From Sedimentisphaerales bacterium (GTDB lineage Bacteria > Planctomycetota > Phycisphaerae > Sedimentisphaerales > SM23-30): a stretch of 64,000 nucleotides of DNA. Position 1 is the first letter of the stretch; each line of letters opens with the position of its first letter. The translations under genes were made by a program, and so were the position numbers. This document shows, piece after piece, positions 41,285 to 51,005 of the stretch. The stretch is taken from assembly GCA_963666285.1 (NCBI GenBank), contig OY762711.1; one strand, written 5' to 3'. The notes beneath the pieces are model-generated. The model ran no database searches. It saw only the letters and a program-made list of their open reading frames with translations, and was not told the DNA's origin.

Positions 41285-42621
41285 ACTGAACTTTTGCAAA
41301 ATTAGGGTAAAGCTAATTGTACTTTAATACGTTTAAAACTTGTTCCGTTGGATTCGATTTGATCAACCACCCAAGCGATTGTATTGCTGAGAGTTTCTCG
41401 CATAACTGCCATACAAGATTGTCCTATGGTCGTCAGGCGTTCTCGTGCCCATTCACACACACGGTTCTGCTGCATTTGAGTCAAAAGTACGCTATACGCC
41501 AGAAACACCATGTACATGTGTCTTGTCTGACCCAGGCCGCTTCTAAGCTGACAGTCGCCCATGCCCAAATACTGCTTGCCGTCTCGATGAAAGCACTCTG
41601 TGCCTTGCCAGCGGCAGCGATAGACCTTCAGGATACGAATCGCTTCCCAGTTGCATCGATTGCAAACCAGAATCTTTTTAGGTTCAATATCATTCTTTTT
41701 ATGCCAGATAATCAGGATACGTACTTTGTGGTCTACACCAGGAATCCTGATACTTTTAGTAAAGTAATATTGGCGATGCTTGCCAATAGTTATGAGTTTT
41801 TTGATTTCAGGGTCAATAGATTTGGCTACTTCTTCAGCCTTTATTACTTTGCCCTGAAATATAGTCTTACGATTTGTTTTCAAATCACCAACATAATTAC
41901 GTTCATACTGGTTTATATGGTTAAGGTTGTCGCTATGGGTAAACCAGCTATCGAAGGTAAAGTCACCGGGAATATCGTTAGCTACAGTCCAGTCAACCAG
42001 ATTGCGGAAAAGGATATTATGATCCTGAAATTCAATGCCCCGTTCCAGACAATCTTCTTTTTTGACAAATCTGTAAAACTCCAAAGGATAATGTTTCCCG
42101 GAATTACAGACATAATTGGCTATCAGGTAATCATGGGCTATTTTATTACGTTGATCTGCATGATCCCAGAAATATCCTACATCCTCAATATGTTTACCAC
42201 TATGGTCTATCAGAACATTATCAAGGGCAATAACCCCAGAATCGCTATATCTGGTTTTAGGGTCTTTCTGCAGCCACTCCAGTCTGGCAGTGTTAAGCGA
42301 TTCTTCGTCCCATTCAACATCGGTGAGAAACCGGTTGAGACAGGATTGATCAGAGGCAAATGCAAATTCCCTGTTGATGGCAGAGACGTTTTTCTTGCGG
42401 GCAATGATAAGACCGGTGATATACTCAGCAAAATGACGACGTTCAGGCTCATTTTGAAAATGATCGCCAAATTCATCGACAGCTTGCTGGACTACTGTAG
42501 GGTATTGTACTATAGCTGGCATACCAAAATCCTTTCTGGGTTTTCGGAGTGCTCTGCTATCAAATTTTATCGGTCTATACCACATTTTAACGTTAATTTT
42601 TTAATTTTGCAAAAGTTCAGT
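41285..42621 (-). mobile_element. IS701-like insertion sequence, 1337 bp
   Basis: Perfect 20 bp terminal inverted repeats actgaacttttgcaaaatta / taattttgcaaaagttcagt, flanked by direct repeat tcta (41281-41284, 42622-42625). Confidence 0.92.
41302..42522 (-). CDS. DDE transposase, IS701-like
   Basis: VIALDNVLIDHSGKHIEDVG, FTFDSWF and YRCRWQGTECFHRDGKQYLGMGDCQLR; start taken at MPAIVQYP. Confidence 0.88.
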   Translation of the reverse strand: MPAIVQYPTVVQQAVDEFGDHFQNEPERRHFAEYITGLIIARKKNVSAINREFAFASDQSCLNRFLTDVEWDEESLNTARLEWLQKDPKTRYSDSGVIALDNVLIDHSGKHIEDVGYFWDHADQRNKIAHDYLIANYVCNSGKHYPLEFYRFVKKEDCLERGIEFQDHNILFRNLVDWTVANDIPGDFTFDSWFTHSDNLNHINQYERNYVGDLKTNRKTIFQGKVIKAEEVAKSIDPEIKKLITIGKHRQYYFTKSIRIPGVDHKVRILIIWHKKNDIEPKKILVCNRCNWEAIRILKVYRCRWQGTECFHRDGKQYLGMGDCQLRSGLGQTRHMYMVFLAYSVLLTQMQQNRVCEWARERLTTIGQSCMAVMRETLSNTIAWVVDQIESNGTSFKRIKVQLALP

Positions 42622-44165
42622 TCTAACTCTTCTCATAATTCAGGTGCAGCAATTTTGGTATGAACTTTTCTTACGCGACAGCTTTAAAATAAGTTGTGAG
42701 CGACAGCGAATTATTCCTGATGTCAACGTACATCAGGACACCTCAATTCTTCACCCGCTTGCGACATGCGAAGCATACTTAACTTTTCGTTTTTCACTCA
42801 ATTATCTGGTCTGCCCACAATCCAAAAAAAACAACTTACGTCAATCTCCGTAAATTTCTCAACCCGTCGTTATCCTTACCGCACCCGTTATAACATCTCC
42901 GCACTCTTCAATTTCATTCCGTTTTTTTAACTCTTCCTTCACCTAAATACTCTCACTTATAAATCAATTAGCCTTGCCAAACCCGTTTAAAAAAGGTCGC
43001 GCAGCGACACCTTCACATCATTGGACAAGTCCAATGATGTGCCAGAGTGCGTAGCACGTATTTATCTTCCTCCTGTTCTACTGTTCTACTGCTCATCTGC
43101 TCTAAGCTCTAAGCTCTAACGACCTTCCGTCGCTCGGCGTAGTCGTATAAAACAAGCTGTCCGCGAAGCGGATACCATAATTTTTCACTTTTAATTATTC
43201 AGTTTTTATTGAGCGTTGTTTATATTAAAGACGAAGTTTTCGTCGTTGTTATGTTTTATCGAGAGCTGATTTTTGCTGGTTCTCATTTTTTGTCGGCTCT
43301 CTACAATTGGACGGTATGTCGAAAGTGCGCTGATTTTTTTAGTGGTCGTGTTGGTTTGGAAGATTGTAAGGTGTTTGTAGTAAGCGGGATAAAATTTTTT
43401 GGAATTATAGATTTTCGCGATTTGGTTGATGTAAAAACGCGGTGATTTTTTCTTTGAAAAAATCAAGTGAAGAATTGCGGTGTCGCTTCGCGACGGCTAA
43501 TTAATGGGTGACGGGAGGTGTGCGGCATATATACGGGGAAGCGCGGCGGGTGGACGGAGGTGAAAAGGCAAATGGATTTGAACGGCGGTGAATTGCGGTA
43601 AACGGACAGTATACGGCGGAGCGTTGAATGGGTGCGGCGGTATACAGACGGGAACGAAGCGGAGACGCGATGAGCTACGCTAAATGAAAAATGAATAATT
43701 AAAAGTGAAAAATTAAGGTGTTCGCCTGGCGGCTCACGGCTTGTTTAAAATTAGAACAGATGACAGTAGAACAGGCAATCAGCAGCGAGCTACGAGCGGC
43801 CAGCTGTCAGGAAATACGTGCTACGCACTCTGGCACATCATTGGACAAGTCCAATGATGTGAAGGTATCGCCTAGCGGCGGAGCTAATTTAACATGCTAA
43901 CGCATATGTGGGGTAGGTTAGCGATAATTGACTAGTGGGTCGGGGAGGAGGTGTGGCGGAGGAAGAAATTTACCGAGATTTGTCGTAATTTGTTATTTTT
44001 GGGTTTTGGGCGGACCAGATAATTGAGTGAAGAACGAAGAACTAAGAGTGAAGAATTGAGGTGTTCGCCTAACGGCTCACGGTTTGTTTTAAGGCTGTCG
44101 CGTAGGTAAAGTTCAATCAAAATTGCGGCACCTGAAGGATGAGAAGAGTTAGAAGAAAGAAGTGA
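42622..44165. repeat. ~1.5 kb nested imperfect inverted repeat with mini-hairpins and 7-mer repeats
   Basis: Reverse-complement matches: 42622-42860 with 43960-44165; 43009-43063 with 43812-43866; ~43072-43105 with ~43750-43775; 43147-43201 with 43692-43748. Confidence 0.85.
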
Positions 44166-44844: not shown

Positions 44845-45960
44845 ATGAATATAATTAAAGTAATAGCAGTTTTAATTTGTTTTCATTATTCTTGTTGGAG
44901 TCAAGCAATTCAATTAGAAGATGTTGATTCTTTGTTTGAAAATATTGGTAATAAGGTTGCGATTTCAACTAAGTTTCCTATTAAAGAGGAACTTAAAAGG
45001 CTCAGTGAGTATTATCCAGACCTTGTTGTTCAAGAGAAAGTAATGAATAATGTTTCTGGATATTTGTGTTATTTAGGAATTATTTACTCTCTTGATAAGC
45101 ATGGAATCAATGGGGGAACTTTACGTGAATGCAACAAAGATTTATGGCCGAATCTTGGCTTTGAAATAAGTGATGAATTTTCTCTCTTTGGTGACTATGA
45201 TATCGAATTGTCCATGGGGATTAAATCAAAAGCTATTGTGCCAAGTTTCAAAAATAACTGTGGCAATAATACTGCCGAATATACTCGCATGTTAAACGCT
45301 TATCTTATTGATGTTTACAAAGGAAGATCATGTATTGACTTTTGGAATAAATATATATCCAGGAATCATAATAGCATCGATGATTGGAGGGTTGATGGTT
45401 TACCTGAGTATGATATATCTCTTTGTTATGCTTGTTTTATCGGAAAAATAGATTTAGTAGAAAAAATTCTAAATAAGGGAGCTAAACCTGAAGATTACAT
45501 GCTAAACCGTTATGATTATATTCCTTTTTCAATTCAAATAGCCGCCCAAAAAGGATTTGATGAAATATTGGCTTTACTTCTTAATAAAACACCATCGAAT
45601 GTTCTGGAAAACCATAAAATAAAATATATTGATTTTACATACTTGAATAATAGGATATCCTTTTCTCCAGTCATTTCCGCAGCTGCAAATGGAAACTTAA
45701 GCTGTCTTGAAGTTTTAAGTGATTTTGGTTTTTACTTAAATATAAAAAATACTTTTGGAAATACAGCACTACATCGTGCTGTTAGAATGAATCGGAAAGA
45801 GGTTGTGAAATATTTAATAGATAATGATCTAGATCCACTTGAAAAAAATATGAAAGGTGAAACATCAATAGATATTGCTAAAAAATATAATGTCGATGGT
45901 GAAATACTTGAGATGTTGATTGGTTCGAGAGTGCAGTTGAAGGAGTCCACATCCGATTAG
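44845..45960 (+). CDS. Secreted ankyrin-repeat protein, possible immunity protein
   Basis: Signal peptide; ankyrin motifs GNTALHRAV, GETSIDIAK and SAAANGNLSCLEVL; AT-rich; AAGGA RBS. Confidence 0.85.
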   Translation: MNIIKVIAVLICFHYSCWSQAIQLEDVDSLFENIGNKVAISTKFPIKEELKRLSEYYPDLVVQEKVMNNVSGYLCYLGIIYSLDKHGINGGTLRECNKDLWPNLGFEISDEFSLFGDYDIELSMGIKSKAIVPSFKNNCGNNTAEYTRMLNAYLIDVYKGRSCIDFWNKYISRNHNSIDDWRVDGLPEYDISLCYACFIGKIDLVEKILNKGAKPEDYMLNRYDYIPFSIQIAAQKGFDEILALLLNKTPSNVLENHKIKYIDFTYLNNRISFSPVISAAANGNLSCLEVLSDFGFYLNIKNTFGNTALHRAVRMNRKEVVKYLIDNDLDPLEKNMKGETSIDIAKKYNVDGEILEMLIGSRVQLKESTSD

Positions 45961-45981
45961 GCGTAAATTTGGCTATCATAA

Positions 45982-46329
45982 GAGACCAAAACCCGTTATT
46001 ATTATAATGGCCGGCAGCTGCTGCTTGAGGAAGTTAAGGATTCAGCGGATGTTGTATCAGGCCGAGAATATGTTTCCGGTAATGACTTGGATGATGCTTG
46101 TACAGAGGCAAAGGCATATGCGGCATCTAGTCAATGTTTATCTTACGTTGCGGAAAAATATCGTAGTTCGCGCCCTATAAATGCCCGTTTATCATCGGAG
46201 GAGCAGGGAGTATACGATGAATTAATGCGTGCTTCTATGGATGATTTTCAAGCCGCCGTTAACAATAAACAGAAATGTGAATTATATCAATTAAATCCTG
46301 ATTTGGTGGAGCCTTTAAAATCGAGGTAA
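45982..46329 (+). pseudogene. Orphan Rhs-core fragment fused to a toxin-like C-terminal tip
   Basis: In-frame TRYYYNGRQLLLEE..GREYVSGNDLDD then ACTEAKAYAASSQCL, which resembles ACSEAGAFDASYQCL near 48210. Confidence 0.7.
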
Positions 46330-46334
46330 ACATA

Positions 46335-47198
46335 ATGTCATATTTTAAATTGCTAATAACAATATTGTTTTGTATTGAAGTATTTTTTTTAGAGGGGTGT
46401 AGTGTATCCAATTTTTACAGTAAAGCTGAATTTGAAATTGTATTAGCTAAATATCATAGTTTAATTGACAATGAAATTAGTGTAAGTAAAATTAGTGGAA
46501 ATTGGGATAGCGACTTTATTATATTAAATAATAAAAAAAATGTGGATTCACCTTCAACGAGAGGGATTTTCAGCATAGAAATTATTCCTGATATAGATGT
46601 TTTTTGCAATGGGTGTAAAAATGCTTGTGTTAATAATATTAAACTATGTATATGGGAAAATGGAGATGTATTCTGGAGTAACCGAACAAATACATTTTAC
46701 ACTAATATTGGCAAAGAAGTAGTTAGTCTGTGGCATGAATGTTTAGATAAGAAAAAACTCTTTTCTGGTAAATTTTCATCAATACAGTATTATGGGGATA
46801 AAATCAACAATAACTTTCTTCACTTTTATAGAATTTCCATACGTAATAGTAATGAATTTGTATCTATTGGTTTGGTTTGTGAATGGTGGAATGATACATT
46901 TTTTACCGGCAATATGAAGACTCATAAAACTGAATTTGTTTACGATAATGATATAAAATGGAATAATATTATATCATTTTTGAATTCCATTAATTTGAAT
47001 GAGCAAGATGTTTATGTTTTAGATAATGATAAAGATTTTTGGATAAAAAATGTTGCATTTTATAATTTATTGCCATATCCAATGTTTTGGATAAATCCAA
47101 AATTAAATAGTGGATATTGTAAATGGAATGAGGCTGTTGAGCGAAAATGGCTTGATAATCAATTGAGTTTTGAGCTAAGCAGGCAATTTCCGCAATAG
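46335..47198 (+). CDS. Putative lipoprotein, probable immunity protein (paralog of 48506-49390)
   Basis: Lipobox-like LEGC; shares CIWENGDVFW, R(I/V)SIR..F(V/I)S and NLLPYP with the paralog. Confidence 0.7.
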   Translation: MSYFKLLITILFCIEVFFLEGCSVSNFYSKAEFEIVLAKYHSLIDNEISVSKISGNWDSDFIILNNKKNVDSPSTRGIFSIEIIPDIDVFCNGCKNACVNNIKLCIWENGDVFWSNRTNTFYTNIGKEVVSLWHECLDKKKLFSGKFSSIQYYGDKINNNFLHFYRISIRNSNEFVSIGLVCEWWNDTFFTGNMKTHKTEFVYDNDIKWNNIISFLNSINLNEQDVYVLDNDKDFWIKNVAFYNLLPYPMFWINPKLNSGYCKWNEAVERKWLDNQLSFELSRQFPQ

Positions 47199-47254
47199 GC
47201 AAATAAGTATCCGACTGTAAATAATTGCATTTTAATTGATTTAGATCCAGAAAT

Positions 47255-48405
47255 TTGGTTAAAAATAATGTTTACGATAACTTTCTGGATGAGGTTCTGT
47301 TACATAGGGCTACTGACGGAACTGAAGTCAGGTATTACCTGCACGATCATTTGAACAGTCCGGCAGCGTTAGCTGAATGTACAGAAGAGCATGAACAACA
47401 CCATGTAAGTGATGAAGGAAGATATATGAGAGCGCCAAGCGAAGCTAATGTAGTCAAGCCGGCCAATCCGGCATGGGTAAGGGCTAGCCACCCGCCCATT
47501 ACAGCACCGGGCGTGCAGAGAGGTAACGAACTGTACGAAGCCCCGGGAAAGGAGTTTGTCAGCCACAACGCAAGTGAAGGTGTTGAGCCCCGAAATTATT
47601 CCTTATCGCATCCGGGCCAGGGTTTTCATATGCCTGAAGCCAATATCGATATATGCGAAATACGGCGAGCATCTATCGACGAGCCGGGGTCTGAGTCCGT
47701 AGCGGGCAAACGAACTGACTGCATTGGAACTTGGGAGAACCGAAGTGCTCCGAAAGGAAGCGGCCAAGGAGCTGAAACCGTGACGCGGCCGTATGGCATT
47801 TTGGTAGTCGGACTGACTCATAGTAGAGGAGTAAACAGGGTAATGCCTGTTGAGTTTCGAAGTTTGAGGCACTCGAAGGGGTCAGCATTAATGTGTAAAG
47901 GCGAAACAGGATATTGGCCAGGCACTGAACTGGAAGAAACCATGAACGTTCCACAGCGTCTTCTATCGGAGACTTCTACAAGGCACATTACTTTGCCTTA
48001 TGTAGCCGTCAAAGTGAGCATTAATGAAGAGCCGGATGAGGGAAATCTTCAAGTCCGGTTCAGTGAGGGGCATGCGTTTCCTTGCACAAAATATAATGAA
48101 ACTCAGAATTTGTTAAATTAATGAAAGGAGGCGACATGCCTACTCGACACTGTTTAGGCCAAGACCCGAACCCAAGAAAAGGAAATAATAGGGAAAGAGC
48201 GTATTCAGACGCATGTTCTGAGGCAGGAGCATTCGATGCGAGTTATCAATGCCTCATGAAAAATGCTGTACTTGCAAGAGAGCTAGGAATTAGCGATGAG
48301 GTAATAGAACGTTTGGAAGCTCAAGCAAATCTAGATTCTAAACAAAGTAGTAGGCAAGCAACAAGATGTAGGCAGATGGGAGAAAGATATGGTTATAACT
48401 GGTGA
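47255..48405 (+). pseudogene. Orphan Rhs-core fragment plus HExxH toxin-like tip, split by a group II intron (exons 47255-47429 and 48149-48405)
   Basis: YDNFLDEVL..RYYLHDHLNSPAAL (Rhs core) then HEQHH; the exons join in frame to give 143 aa (..EGRYM-N-CLGQDPNP..). Confidence 0.72.
47430..48148 (+). ncRNA. ORF-less group II intron, IIB-like, 719 nt
   Basis: Domain V gAGCcggatgagggaaatcttcaagtccggttc (48029-48061); domain VI with bulged A48142 and 3' end ctcgAC; DI basal pairings ccaag/cttgg and aatgtagtca/tgactgcatt; EBS1 tcatat (47626-47631) pairs with exon end atatga; no reverse transcriptase ORF in DIV. Confidence 0.9.
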
Positions 48406-48505
48406 GAATTGTACTTGATTTTTCTACTCATGTTTTTGGATATGGAAATATGAAAACTTGAACATTAAACATAAGTACGGCAAGCTAAGGAATTAATAAT
48501 AAATT

Positions 48506-49390
48506 ATGAAATATATCATTGTGGCTACATTTAGTATTATTTTATTATCTGGTTGCAACAAGCCAGAAACAATGCAATTGTTATCAGAGTATCAGAGTGC
48601 CTTTTCTCCAGATTATTGTTCAGCAATTAAGTTAGACTTGACATATTTTGATAACCAATCGCTAATTCAAATGGCTTCAGAGTCAAAAATACCAAATATT
48701 AAATATTATGATTTTTTTGCGTTGGAAATATTGGACAAACATAACTCAAAATCCCCAAATAAAATACCTAATTTAGACAAGTTACTCTTACCAGACACGA
48801 GGGTACCTTCTAATTTAGACAAGTTGCTCTTACCTGACACAAGGGCGATTATCGAGATTGCAGTTAACTGTAGTAACCATTGTTACAATCATTGCAGTTG
48901 CAATGGTTCTGTCGGTTGGCCAAGAGTTTGCATATGGGAGAATGGGGATGTATTTTGGAATCTCAATCGTTATGTTTTTTATTTTAAATTAGAAAGAGAA
49001 ATAGTTAATAAATTTCACAAAATAATTCAATCATCGAATTTATTTGACAAATGCAATAAGGATTTATTTGTTTATTGCGATGAGAAATTTCCTGACTCAT
49101 TTTACAATAGAGTTTCAATAAGGTTGGATGATAAATTTATATCTTTGTGTTCCTTCTCTTCTTGGTGGAAAAACGGTTTCTTTTCTCCGAATCTCTATAA
49201 AGATTGTTATTACATAAGCAAGCCAGAAGTTGATATCTTATATGATTTGGGAGAAATTTTAGCTGACATAGATTTGTCAAAATATGAGGTTTATGTATTA
49301 TATTTAGATAATCAAAAAAGTTTTTGGTGGGATAAAATAGGTTCGCGAAACTTATTACCATACCCAACTATTACGTGTCTTACTCAATAA
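48506..49390 (+). CDS. Putative lipoprotein, probable immunity protein
   Basis: Lipobox LSGC; paralog of 46335-47198; contains a 42 bp tandem duplication. Confidence 0.72.
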   Translation: MKYIIVATFSIILLSGCNKPETMQLLSEYQSAFSPDYCSAIKLDLTYFDNQSLIQMASESKIPNIKYYDFFALEILDKHNSKSPNKIPNLDKLLLPDTRVPSNLDKLLLPDTRAIIEIAVNCSNHCYNHCSCNGSVGWPRVCIWENGDVFWNLNRYVFYFKLEREIVNKFHKIIQSSNLFDKCNKDLFVYCDEKFPDSFYNRVSIRLDDKFISLCSFSSWWKNGFFSPNLYKDCYYISKPEVDILYDLGEILADIDLSKYEVYVLYLDNQKSFWWDKIGSRNLLPYPTITCLTQ

Positions 49391-49880: not shown

Positions 49881-51005
49881 TTAAAATGGAATTTCATTAT
49901 CTACTATTGGTTCATCGTAGCGTTTGATTGAATCAAGTCGTGTTTGCAAATTAGCAATAAAGATTTTTTGTTTTTCAAGTGAAGAAGTTTTTAATAGGTG
50001 TAGAAAAGATTTGATTTGGTTAACCGGAAACTTTGAGTTTCTTTCAAAATAATATCTACCATCTACAAAGCATCTTACAATATGTGGGGAATAAGGGACG
50101 TATTCTTCTAAGATCATTTTTCGGTACGCATCTTCGAGTTTTTTTAATATTTGAGGTATATCATCATAGTATTTTGCTCCTTTTTCAATTCTTGATATAC
50201 AACATAATAGAGAATCAGCGAAAAATCTATAAGATAATTTCTCATTTTCATTGAAATCAATTTCTAAAAACATATTGCTATTAATACTCTTTTCAATGTC
50301 GAAAAAACTTTGTATTCTTGTGGCGTCATCTTTGTTACACATTTGTAGGAGTAATTTATTATATACAAAGGATTCTATATTGTTTTCAATAATAATTTGT
50401 TGGAATAATTTACCAATGAAATATATTTCAGTAGTGAAATCGTATAGAGCTGAATCAAATTCGTTTGGAGGTTCGCACCATGAATTCACACTTGTACTTT
50501 TATAATAATCTGTTATTTCTGTGATTTTTTTACTAAAGCCAAAATCAATTATTTTAACATTTCCATCAAATGTGATCATGATATTTGATCTGCGTATATC
50601 GCGGTGTAGAATTTTATTTTTTTCCAGGTGACTAAAACCGTCTATAACTTGAATGAAAATTTCATTAATTCTTTCTGGATTTTCACTAAGATAAGCTTCG
50701 AAGTCATCGCCGTCAATATGTTCCATAAGAATAAATCCAGCACACTGATCTGGATATAAAAAATAATTGAATACTCTAACAATATTAGTATGGTAAATCT
50801 GATGTAGTAATTTAATTTCTTGTCTAAATTTATTAAAAAGTAGTATTTTTTCTTCTTCGTTACTTGGTTGAAACTTTTTGCATACAAATCTTTCTTCAAT
50901 TAATGGATCATAAAGGAGGACTGTTTTACCGCATGCACCTTGCCCTAACTCTTTTATAAGTTCGAAGTCTTTAGCTCGTGTAAACTTGATTATATCATTT
51001 TCCAT
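49881..51005 (-). CDS. Hanks-type Ser/Thr protein kinase, AT-rich
   Basis: LGQGACG, VCKK, HRDIRRSNIMI and DFG motifs; ends DNEIPF. Confidence 0.9.
   Translation of the reverse strand: MENDIIKFTRAKDFELIKELGQGACGKTVLLYDPLIEERFVCKKFQPSNEEEKILLFNKFRQEIKLLHQIYHTNIVRVFNYFLYPDQCAGFILMEHIDGDDFEAYLSENPERINEIFIQVIDGFSHLEKNKILHRDIRRSNIMITFDGNVKIIDFGFSKKITEITDYYKSTSVNSWCEPPNEFDSALYDFTTEIYFIGKLFQQIIIENNIESFVYNKLLLQMCNKDDATRIQSFFDIEKSINSNMFLEIDFNENEKLSYRFFADSLLCCISRIEKGAKYYDDIPQILKKLEDAYRKMILEEYVPYSPHIVRCFVDGRYYFERNSKFPVNQIKSFLHLLKTSSLEKQKIFIANLQTRLDSIKRYDEPIVDNEIPF

Follow-up and report, generated by a model that had tools for sequence, protein, structure and literature searches.

A group II intron lineage that appears to target translation start signals and to carry a spare start of its own

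Introduction

How might an intron interrupt a gene one nucleotide (nt) after its start codon and still leave that gene open to expression? The survival of bacterial group II introns is usually put down to avoidance of genes or to dependence on splicing, and the locus described here raises the possibility of another arrangement. It lies in a 64,000-nt stretch of contig OY762711.1 (GenBank assembly GCA_963666285.1) from a Sedimentisphaerales bacterium of the phylum Planctomycetota. We refer to the whole of this stretch as the window, and five-digit positions are window positions. At 47430-48148 (+) the window holds a 719-nt group II intron that lacks an open reading frame (ORF) for a reverse transcriptase (RT), follows a Shine-Dalgarno (SD)-like sequence, an ATG and one further nucleotide, and carries a second SD and ATG within its own domain VI. 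We favour the interpretation, to which we assign a probability of about 0.72, that this is a non-autonomous, RT-less group II intron from an Rfam D1-D4-6-type lineage that has specialised in translation start sites and brings with it a spare in-phase start. This interpretation is supported at the level of the family and the lineage; the window site itself is a start-like motif in an orphan cassette.

Results

A complete ORF-less intron in eight recent copies

The element at 47430-48148, which begins GAGCG and ends CCUACUCGAC, is a complete ribozyme. It matches Rfam family RF02005 (group-II-D1D4-6) at 47463-47699 with 112.2 bits (gathering score 49), covering model positions 1-225 of 225, and RF00029 (domains V and VI) at 48027-48148 with 52.3 bits (gathering score 40); the ORF listing contains no RT ORF between the domain I core and domains V/VI. 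An initial annotation, made from the letters of the window, had proposed an ORF-less group II intron at this position. All of its letters and coordinates are present in the sequence, and the proposal is borne out by the Rfam matches, the lack of an RT ORF and the existence of eight exact copies in the genome. The ends at 47430 and 48148 are fixed because each of these copies is exactly 719 nt long and the flanks are unrelated, and covariation among relatives between exon-binding site 1 (EBS1) and its partner in the 5' exon, intron-binding site 1 (IBS1), also backs the boundaries. Further support for them comes from a single sediment-metagenome contig, of low depth, that joins 47429 to 48162, with 12 different letters in place of 48149-48161; we read this as a probable intron-less allele of the window locus.

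The eight copies, which form two subfamilies of four, differ from one another at only 0-2 nt. So few differences, combined with exact ends, imply that the intron has spread to eight sites in this genome very recently. All eight insertions lie one nt after an ATG (...tATGA, then the intron), all eight have an SD-like stretch upstream of the ATG and an A at exon position +1, and all eight keep the AAGGAGG and ATG of domain VI in the same phase, which is what the initial annotation had proposed to check in further copies. In six of the eight, the insertion falls on the start codon of a long gene whose product is secreted or lies in the membrane. With the intron removed, these six read as ORFs of 512, 379, 271, 153, 333 and 515 amino acids (aa), with N-termini of the signal-peptide or prepilin type. 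Pfam domains are found in the 3'-exon translation for five of the six genes: Transglut_core in a transglutaminase-like protein, HlyD in an HlyD-type protein, N_methyl in a prepilin-type protein (the match begins at residue 1 of the 3'-exon translation), BD-FAE in an esterase, and DUF3472 with GH16 in a GH16 protein. The DUF3472/GH16 gene has an intron-less homologue in genome G004 that is 56% identical, begins aaaggtaatcATGAAA… and has a matching signal peptide. Of the two other copies, one is that of the window and one (5266367) sits in a purine-rich repeat.

Probable recognition of an SD-N-AUG-A target

In the window, the predicted EBS1 (UCAUAU) and EBS2 (UUCCUU) pair with ATATGA and AAGGAA, respectively, at six of six positions each, as had been proposed; this is the best combined match among the eight copies. 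Among relatives, EBS1 and the six letters that close the 5' exon covary (UCAUGG/ccauga, UCAUAA/uuauga, ACAUUU/aaaugu, CCGUGU/acacgg and UCUUAA/uuaaga), and the corresponding pair in a sister group is GGGACA/uguccc. Read as complementarity, an EBS1 that contains CAU, an EBS2 that resembles an anti-SD sequence and the A at exon position +1 together match the signal SD-N-AUG-A.

Such a distribution of sites might instead reflect survival: the intron could insert at any TATGA followed by A, with only those copies tolerated that fall at gene starts and are rescued by the built-in start. IBS1 and IBS3 alone specify TATGAA, which occurs 6259 times in the genome, and the register of IBS2 is loose. Only 9.3% of these TATGAA sites are start-like, even when scored by a generous rule, as against six of the eight copies (P = 1.5e-5). 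Insertions within genes would also splice and be tolerated, yet none is seen among the copies of this genome, and differences of 0-2 nt leave little time for purging. Both copies that lie off verified gene starts, that of the window and 5266367, still have SD-like purines upstream. Lastly, the EBS2 loop of the ORF-less copies reads UUCCUU where that of their RT-bearing relatives reads AGAAAUUA, and in several other relatives it reads CUCCUU. We therefore regard survival without targeting as very improbable, and return to targeting of start signals as the better account of the eight sites.

RT-bearing relatives and mobility

The initial annotation called for a cognate RT-encoding copy. The genome contains two introns of 1929 nt, 910721 (+) and 5395339 (-), and a 282-nt 3' fragment; over the first 426 nt, identity with the 719-nt family is 85%. 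Each 1929-nt copy encodes an RT of 443 aa that matches TIGR04416 at 340 bits (cutoff 300) and, in Pfam, RVT_1 only; no Pfam match to an HNH or other endonuclease domain was found in it. The 5' part of the domain IV remnant of the ORF-less intron resembles, in alignment, the sequence that surrounds the start of the RT in the 1929-nt copy. A candidate RT source exists; its recognition sequences are not those of the ORF-less family: EBS1 of the RT copies is UCUUAA (target UUAAGA, and one copy does lie at uuaaga), and EBS2 differs as described above. Because both loops differ, the RT-less family is, to judge from its guide sequences, retargeted relative to the RT-bearing copies.

RTs that lack an endonuclease domain are expected to prime at replication forks and hence to give insertions co-oriented with replication. 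All 12 family members (the eight ORF-less copies, a 648-nt variant, the two RT copies and the 282-nt fragment) are co-oriented with replication, compared with 63% of start-like TATGAA sites; orientation was assigned from the cumulative GC skew of G000:C1 (minimum near 5.72 Mb, maximum near 2.68 Mb). The 648-nt variant (G000:C1:1613560-1614207) is degenerate, with a 71-nt deletion in domain IV, an EBS1 loop mutated to UUAUUU, and stop codons in the frame entered from the 5' exon. The repeat in which this variant lies is found beside RT copy 5395339 as well (common …atgaatgctgaattatga).

A putative spare start in domain VI

The domain VI start had been described as a replacement SD and ATG in the phase of the ATG plus one nt left in the 5' exon. 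Both the letters and the phase hold at 48125-48148: cgac (48132-48135) separates AAGGAGG from the ATG, and CCT ACT CGA C follows the ATG up to 48148. The minimum-energy fold of domain VI (48063-48148) has -29.6 kcal/mol (z = -5.3), and none of 200 shuffled sequences is as stable. In this fold the SD strand AAGGAGGCG is paired with CGUUUCCUU, which agrees with the earlier statement that tttcctt in the stem pairs with the SD; the AUG is paired with CAU, five of the five nt of the GGAGG core are paired, and the branch-point A48142 is bulged, 7 nt from the intron end.

We asked how far these features extend beyond the genome, using relatives from genomes of the same order, a species-genome collection, metagenomes and the phylum as a whole. 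Metagenomes were sampled with a domain V/VI 5' motif that excludes the SD+ATG feature, and their 5' ends were located with an nhmmer profile, which found 23 ends, contigs being short; the phylum-wide DNA search covered 401 genomes, with two candidates scored per genome, and added four new 5' junctions. The initial annotation had proposed to check whether homologues share the type of site and the phase. For introns outside this genome, 22 junctions with the 5' exon were resolved; of these, 18 end in ATGA, one in ATGT and three otherwise, and of 75 sampled domain VI sequences 33 have an SD-like core 4-12 nt before an ATG, in each case in the same phase. The ATG is at -13 in 29 of the 33 and at -16, in a different sequence context, in the other four. 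Exon position +1 is A in 32 of these 33 introns. In seven relatives that lack the domain VI SD+ATG, no 5' exon ends in ATGA or ATGT (one ends in TTGA). For the 25 SD+ATG introns with at least 60 codons of 3' flank, an in-phase ORF of at least 60 codons follows in 14, as against two and five in the other two frames; for introns without SD+ATG the in-phase count is seven of 36, with five and two in the other frames.

In a tree of RTs, ten SD+ATG rows form a clade (100/98) whose titles name Planctomycetota, Lentisphaerota and Ignavibacteriota; one SD+ATG intron (L185) falls outside it, on a long branch. The clade is sister to five rows in which domain VI is 32 nt long and has ACG or GGG in place of the AUG, and this sister group, with its short domain VI, has neither an ATG-type target nor SD+ATG. 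Distant relatives without the AUG have a long domain VI extension as well, so that the derived trait is the SD+AUG and not the extension.

Two further observations concern domain VI in the wider group. Six metagenomic loci (L151, L164, L167, L198, L206 and L210) have a 38-nt domain VI and 3' exons that begin TGTGGAGG… or TGCTAAAGGAGG…, with an ATG 6-10 nt further on; these introns sit just 5' of an SD and so target a start region in a different register. Separately, an insert of about 60 nt in domain VI (…AATATTGTGRCAC…GAAA…AACAGRGAA.ACAAA…CCTAAA…) is conserved in many D1-D4-6 introns, including L054, L032, L034, L069, L071 and L103; neither the window's family nor the short-domain-VI sister clade has it.

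The principal alternative for domain VI is that targeting is real but the SD and AUG are mere helix structure that ribosomes do not use, so that the interrupted genes rely on splicing alone. Both SD and AUG are fully paired, the helix that buries them is very stable, and the 4-nt spacing in the window copy is short; pairing alone could explain why the purines stay SD-like. The extension, being present in distant relatives without an AUG, is no adaptation for a start site. On the other side, the AUG and an AGGA/GGAG core occur only alongside ATG-type targets, and the sister clade has ACG or GGG at the same position of the helix. The partner strand covaries (GUUCCU/AGGAAC, ACUCCU/AGGAGU and CGUUUCCUU/AAGGAGGCG) while the purine core stays SD-like, a second architecture moves the AUG 3 nt upstream and keeps its phase, and in-phase ORFs are enriched downstream. 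One locus amounts to a natural experiment: L034 (G005:C201) is 5'-truncated, starting inside domain I, and so should be unable to splice, yet it retains domains V/VI with GGAGG and ATG and is followed directly by an open frame that runs for at least 463 codons and has a signal-peptide-like start. We consider a purely structural role for the domain VI SD and AUG unlikely, and prefer a spare start that ribosomes could use.

An open frame through the unspliced intron

The frame entered from the ATG of the 5' exon (the host frame) is open for 229 codons across the intron, while the other two frames hold 14 and 20 stops; an equally open host frame was reached by one of 20000 dinucleotide shuffles, and the open frame is kept in all eight copies. 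It closes at a TAA that overlaps an ATG in the frame of the 3' exon (UAAUG), and the AAGGAGG and ATG 48136 come after this overlap. A similar arrangement is present in an independent metagenomic ORF-less intron, L209, of 653 nt and 55% identity, in which the domain VI ATG is at -16. Its host frame stays open for 212 codons and closes at a TGA overlapping that ATG (AUGA), with 11 and 15 stops in the other frames, and none of 20000 shuffles is as open. A host-frame stop placed exactly at the spare start in two diverged introns also speaks against the view that the domain VI SD and AUG serve structure alone.

The 231-aa host-frame peptide of the window intron matches no Pfam family. We considered whether the 231-codon frame hides a protein gene and rejected this, given the lack of a Pfam match, a sequence dictated by the ribozyme and a loose similarity to the L209 peptide. 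The idea that the domain VI SD+AUG is a decoy for EBS1 and EBS2 was likewise rejected, since its letters do not match IBS1.

In bacterial operons, overlapping stop and start codons such as UAAUG and AUGA serve translational coupling. The open host frame and UAAUG suggest coupling here too. As in the textbook case, the stop overlaps or abuts the next start, and the SD lies inside the upstream frame, hidden until a ribosome passes; the difference is that the upstream "gene" would be a ribozyme read as a 231-codon leader. We infer that the open frame reflects selection for ribosome passage followed by termination and reinitiation. Tentatively, and at somewhat less than even odds, we propose that in some RT-less members the ribozyme doubles as a translatable leader whose stop lies at the spare start, where reinitiation in the frame of the host gene would pass on the native rate of translation without splicing.

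The frame is closed elsewhere in the lineage. Host-frame stops fall at intron nt 12, 90, 168, … in the RT-bearing copy of this genome and first at 12 and 90 in the 648-nt variant; the first stop is at nt 12-150 in other RT-bearing relatives (459 in one) and at nt 87 in the ORF-less L032. Only L209 was found to have an open host frame among further ORF-less relatives at the 75 loci with a detectable domain VI, and the phylum-wide search, limited to two candidates in each of the 401 genomes, found no new ORF-less copies.

The window site

What the intron interrupts in the window is less clear-cut. The 5'-exon fragment matches the interior of a 627-aa YD-repeat protein encoded in the same genome (44% identity, E = 2.8e-6), with the YD-type stretch reading RYYLHDHLNSPAALA in the former and YYAHDHLYSPAALIAG in the latter. 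Because the 62 in-frame codons upstream of the window ATG resemble YD/Rhs repeats, this ATG is a start-like motif only. Insertion at a start signal, as proposed in the initial annotation, is supported at the level of the family; the window ATG itself lies in frame with those codons. As far as the coding context allows one to judge, the window copy occupies a start-like motif inside an orphan YD/Rhs-type cassette, not a demonstrated gene start, and its placement fits recognition of the motif by sequence.

The surroundings have a repetitive organisation. Two tandem paralogous cassettes, at 45961-47198 and 47199-49390, each contain a short ORF with a YD-repeat tail and a common …DAC(S/T)EA…QCL… stretch, followed by an ORF of about 290 aa (46335-47198 and 48506-49390) with a common CIWENGDVFW motif. 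The intron is in the second cassette only, so that an intron-less paralogous cassette lies just upstream of it. Neither of the ~290-aa neighbour genes, nor the 5'-exon fragment, nor the 3'-exon ORF has a Pfam family, and a search of the genome with the 3'-exon ORF returned only itself; a weak paralogue at 46087-46329 is the only homologue seen in the genome. The tandem cassettes look like orphan polymorphic-toxin and immunity modules. A DDE transposase gene (DDE_5, DDE_Tnp_1) is found upstream of the cassettes at 41305-42585 (-), with a 448-aa open frame of no assigned family opposite it at 41317-42663 (+); the region also holds an ankyrin-repeat gene at 44845-45960 and a Ser/Thr kinase gene at 49884-51005 (-).

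It is an even question whether the window copy is a dead-end insertion in a decaying orphan toxin cassette, without consequence for expression. The 5' exon is a YD-repeat remnant without a start of its own, the 86-aa ORF of the 3' exon has no family, and the intron-less metagenome allele has an indel just past the junction. On the other side, the window site is the best match to EBS1 and EBS2 of all eight copies. The matter concerns the window site only, and a dead end there would be compatible with a family specialised for start sites. Coordinates of the features are collected in Table 1.

Table 1. Features of the intron and its exons in the window (all on the + strand).
Feature	Position	Basis or remark
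5' exon, in-frame YD/Rhs-type repeat remnant ending in the target motif	47255-47429	62 open codons upstream of the ATG
AAGGAA, SD-like IBS2 candidate	47415-47420	6 Watson-Crick pairs with EBS2 UUCCUU
gatat, spacer between AAGGAA and ATG	47421-47425	Sequence letters
IBS1 ATATGA (ATG 47426-47428 and A 47429)	47424-47429	Fully complementary to EBS1 UCAUAU
Host-frame reading frame (ATG, 230 codons, TAA)	47426-48121	No stop, intron nt 3-689
Domain I core	47463-47699	RF02005 match
EBS2 UUCCUU in internal loop AAAUUAUUCCUUAUC	47599-47604	Rfam alignment: unpaired 5' strand before EBS1 hairpin
EBS1 UCAUAU in hairpin loop	47626-47631	Rfam structure
Domain IV remnant, approximate limits	47846-48026	Limits by eye, alignment of ORF-less intron, variant and RT copy
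Domain V	48029-48061	RF00029 alignment
Extended domain VI, bulged branch-point A at 48142	48063-48148	RF00029 and fold
UAAUG (host-frame stop TAA 48119-48121 overlapping ATG 48121-48123)	48119-48123	ATG in 3'-exon frame
AAGGAGG, SD sequence in 3' strand of domain VI	48125-48131	Sequence and fold
Domain VI ATG, 13 nt before the 3' splice site	48136-48138	Phase of the ATG+1 of the 5' exon
3' exon	48149-48405	86-aa ORF if spliced; 89 aa read from 48136

Discussion

Our observations argue for an RT-less intron family whose guides match a translation start signal and whose domain VI carries a second one, such that an interrupted gene can probably still be made. We propose that the RT from the two 1929-nt copies, which lacks an endonuclease domain, would act in trans to splice the intron and to mobilise it at replication forks. 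The product of an interrupted gene could then be made by two routes: splicing would restore M-K/N…, and initiation at the domain VI AUG would give MPTR(Q/H)…. In the ORF-less family, ribosomes that start at the host AUG may also read the whole unspliced intron, melting domain VI, then stop at the UAA at 48119-48121 and restart at the AUG at 48121 or at the SD-led AUG at 48136.

Several observations weigh against this interpretation. Both splicing and initiation at 48121 or 48136 are predictions. In other copies the SD-like partner of EBS2 (of the AAGG or AAGGA type) lies anywhere from -18 to -10, and one copy pairs over 4 nt only; because the position of IBS2 varies in this way, the contact of EBS2 with the SD would be flexible or partial. 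In one relative (L060), IBS2 is not SD-like. Two of the eight copies, that of the window and 5266367, are off verified gene starts, and 11 of the 25 SD+ATG relatives with enough flank have no long in-phase ORF. The helper role of the RT copies is assumed, and those copies differ from the ORF-less family in EBS1 and EBS2 and are only 85% identical to it over domains I-III. The intron begins GAGCG instead of the consensus GUGYG; the aligned 5' ends of close relatives are GUGCG, GUGUG or GAGUG, and position 2 is A in all mobile copies of this genome. As for coupling, L032, the 648-nt variant and every RT-bearing member lack the open host frame, so that it rests on two lineages, and the passage of ribosomes through the ribozyme would be expected to hinder splicing.

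Among introns already described, the nearest case is the clade of IIB1/CL1 introns (Michel 2007, Biochimie), represented by Avi.groEL and EcKTE56.groEL, whose members lie in or beside start or stop codons (Gomes et al. 2025, PMC12584367). By the description in that paper, these introns are proteobacterial, each homes to one conserved housekeeping gene, a 300-700-nt subdomain Ia is present near the 5' end, and the CL1 RT has an endonuclease domain; the groEL members supply a replacement for the signal that they interrupt, UAA becoming UAG. The type of insertion site is shared, being one nt after an ATG in all eight copies here. Compared with that description, the lineage reported here departs in three defining features: it has no Ia insert (the match to the domain I model begins 33 nt from the 5' end of an intron of 719 nt in all), its putative helper RT has 443 aa and no endonuclease domain, and its target genes are many and unrelated, with only SD-AUG-A in common. 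Its hosts are Planctomycetota, Lentisphaerota and Ignavibacteriota, and a spare SD+AUG is present in domain VI.

Subgroup IIC introns offer a second comparison. They insert after Rho-independent terminators, in intergenic regions, by reading a DNA hairpin and a short IBS1 (PMC12584367). Like them, as they are described there, the present lineage recognises a generic gene-expression signal with many sites and little harm, and has an RT without an endonuclease domain; unlike them, it reads SD+AUG by EBS2 and EBS1, inside the first codons of genes. The terminator hairpin and missing EBS2 that mark subgroup IIC are not what we see here: SD+ATG takes the place of a hairpin in the 5' exons, and the intron has an EBS2 loop. 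Mobilisation of ORF-less introns in trans also has precedent, in the TeI3 introns of Thermosynechococcus elongatus, which use the RT of a related intron (Mohr et al. 2010, PMC2882425), and in the Trichodesmium dnaN introns (PMC12584367). As in those cases, many near-identical RT-less copies occur here beside RT-bearing relatives, and diverged EBS sequences give new targets; start-signal targeting, a spare start and an open host frame are not reported for them in the parts of these two papers that we used. Our survey of the literature found no group II lineage with generic SD+AUG targeting or a domain VI start site; Michel et al. 2007 and Simon et al. 2008 may bear on novelty.

One consequence is practical. 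The 288-aa ORF at 47255-48121 consists of the YD remnant and ribozyme sequence and is not a gene, and the same holds for its equivalents at the other seven sites; gene callers are likely to annotate all of these as hypothetical proteins. The intron also splits the true N-termini of six genes. The lineage further suggests natural parts for targetrons that would tag or conditionally gate gene starts.

For the biology of group II introns, guides that imitate the anti-SD sequence and the initiator anticodon appear to home this lineage to the most generic signal of a gene, and the replacement start would make insertion nearly harmless. The lineage would then join the IIC introns, with their terminator sites, as a second example of introns guided by an expression signal and not by a unique sequence. 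It offers a concrete, testable mechanism for reaching start codons; how the IIB1/CL1 clade reaches start and stop codons is stated to be unknown in Gomes et al. 2025 (PMC12584367). If the open host frame is selected, two constraints would act on the ribozyme together, one from its fold and one from the need to stay free of stop codons. If coupling is true, the intron would be a mobile element acting as a silent, coupled upstream ORF, and its catalytic RNA would be selected for an open frame.

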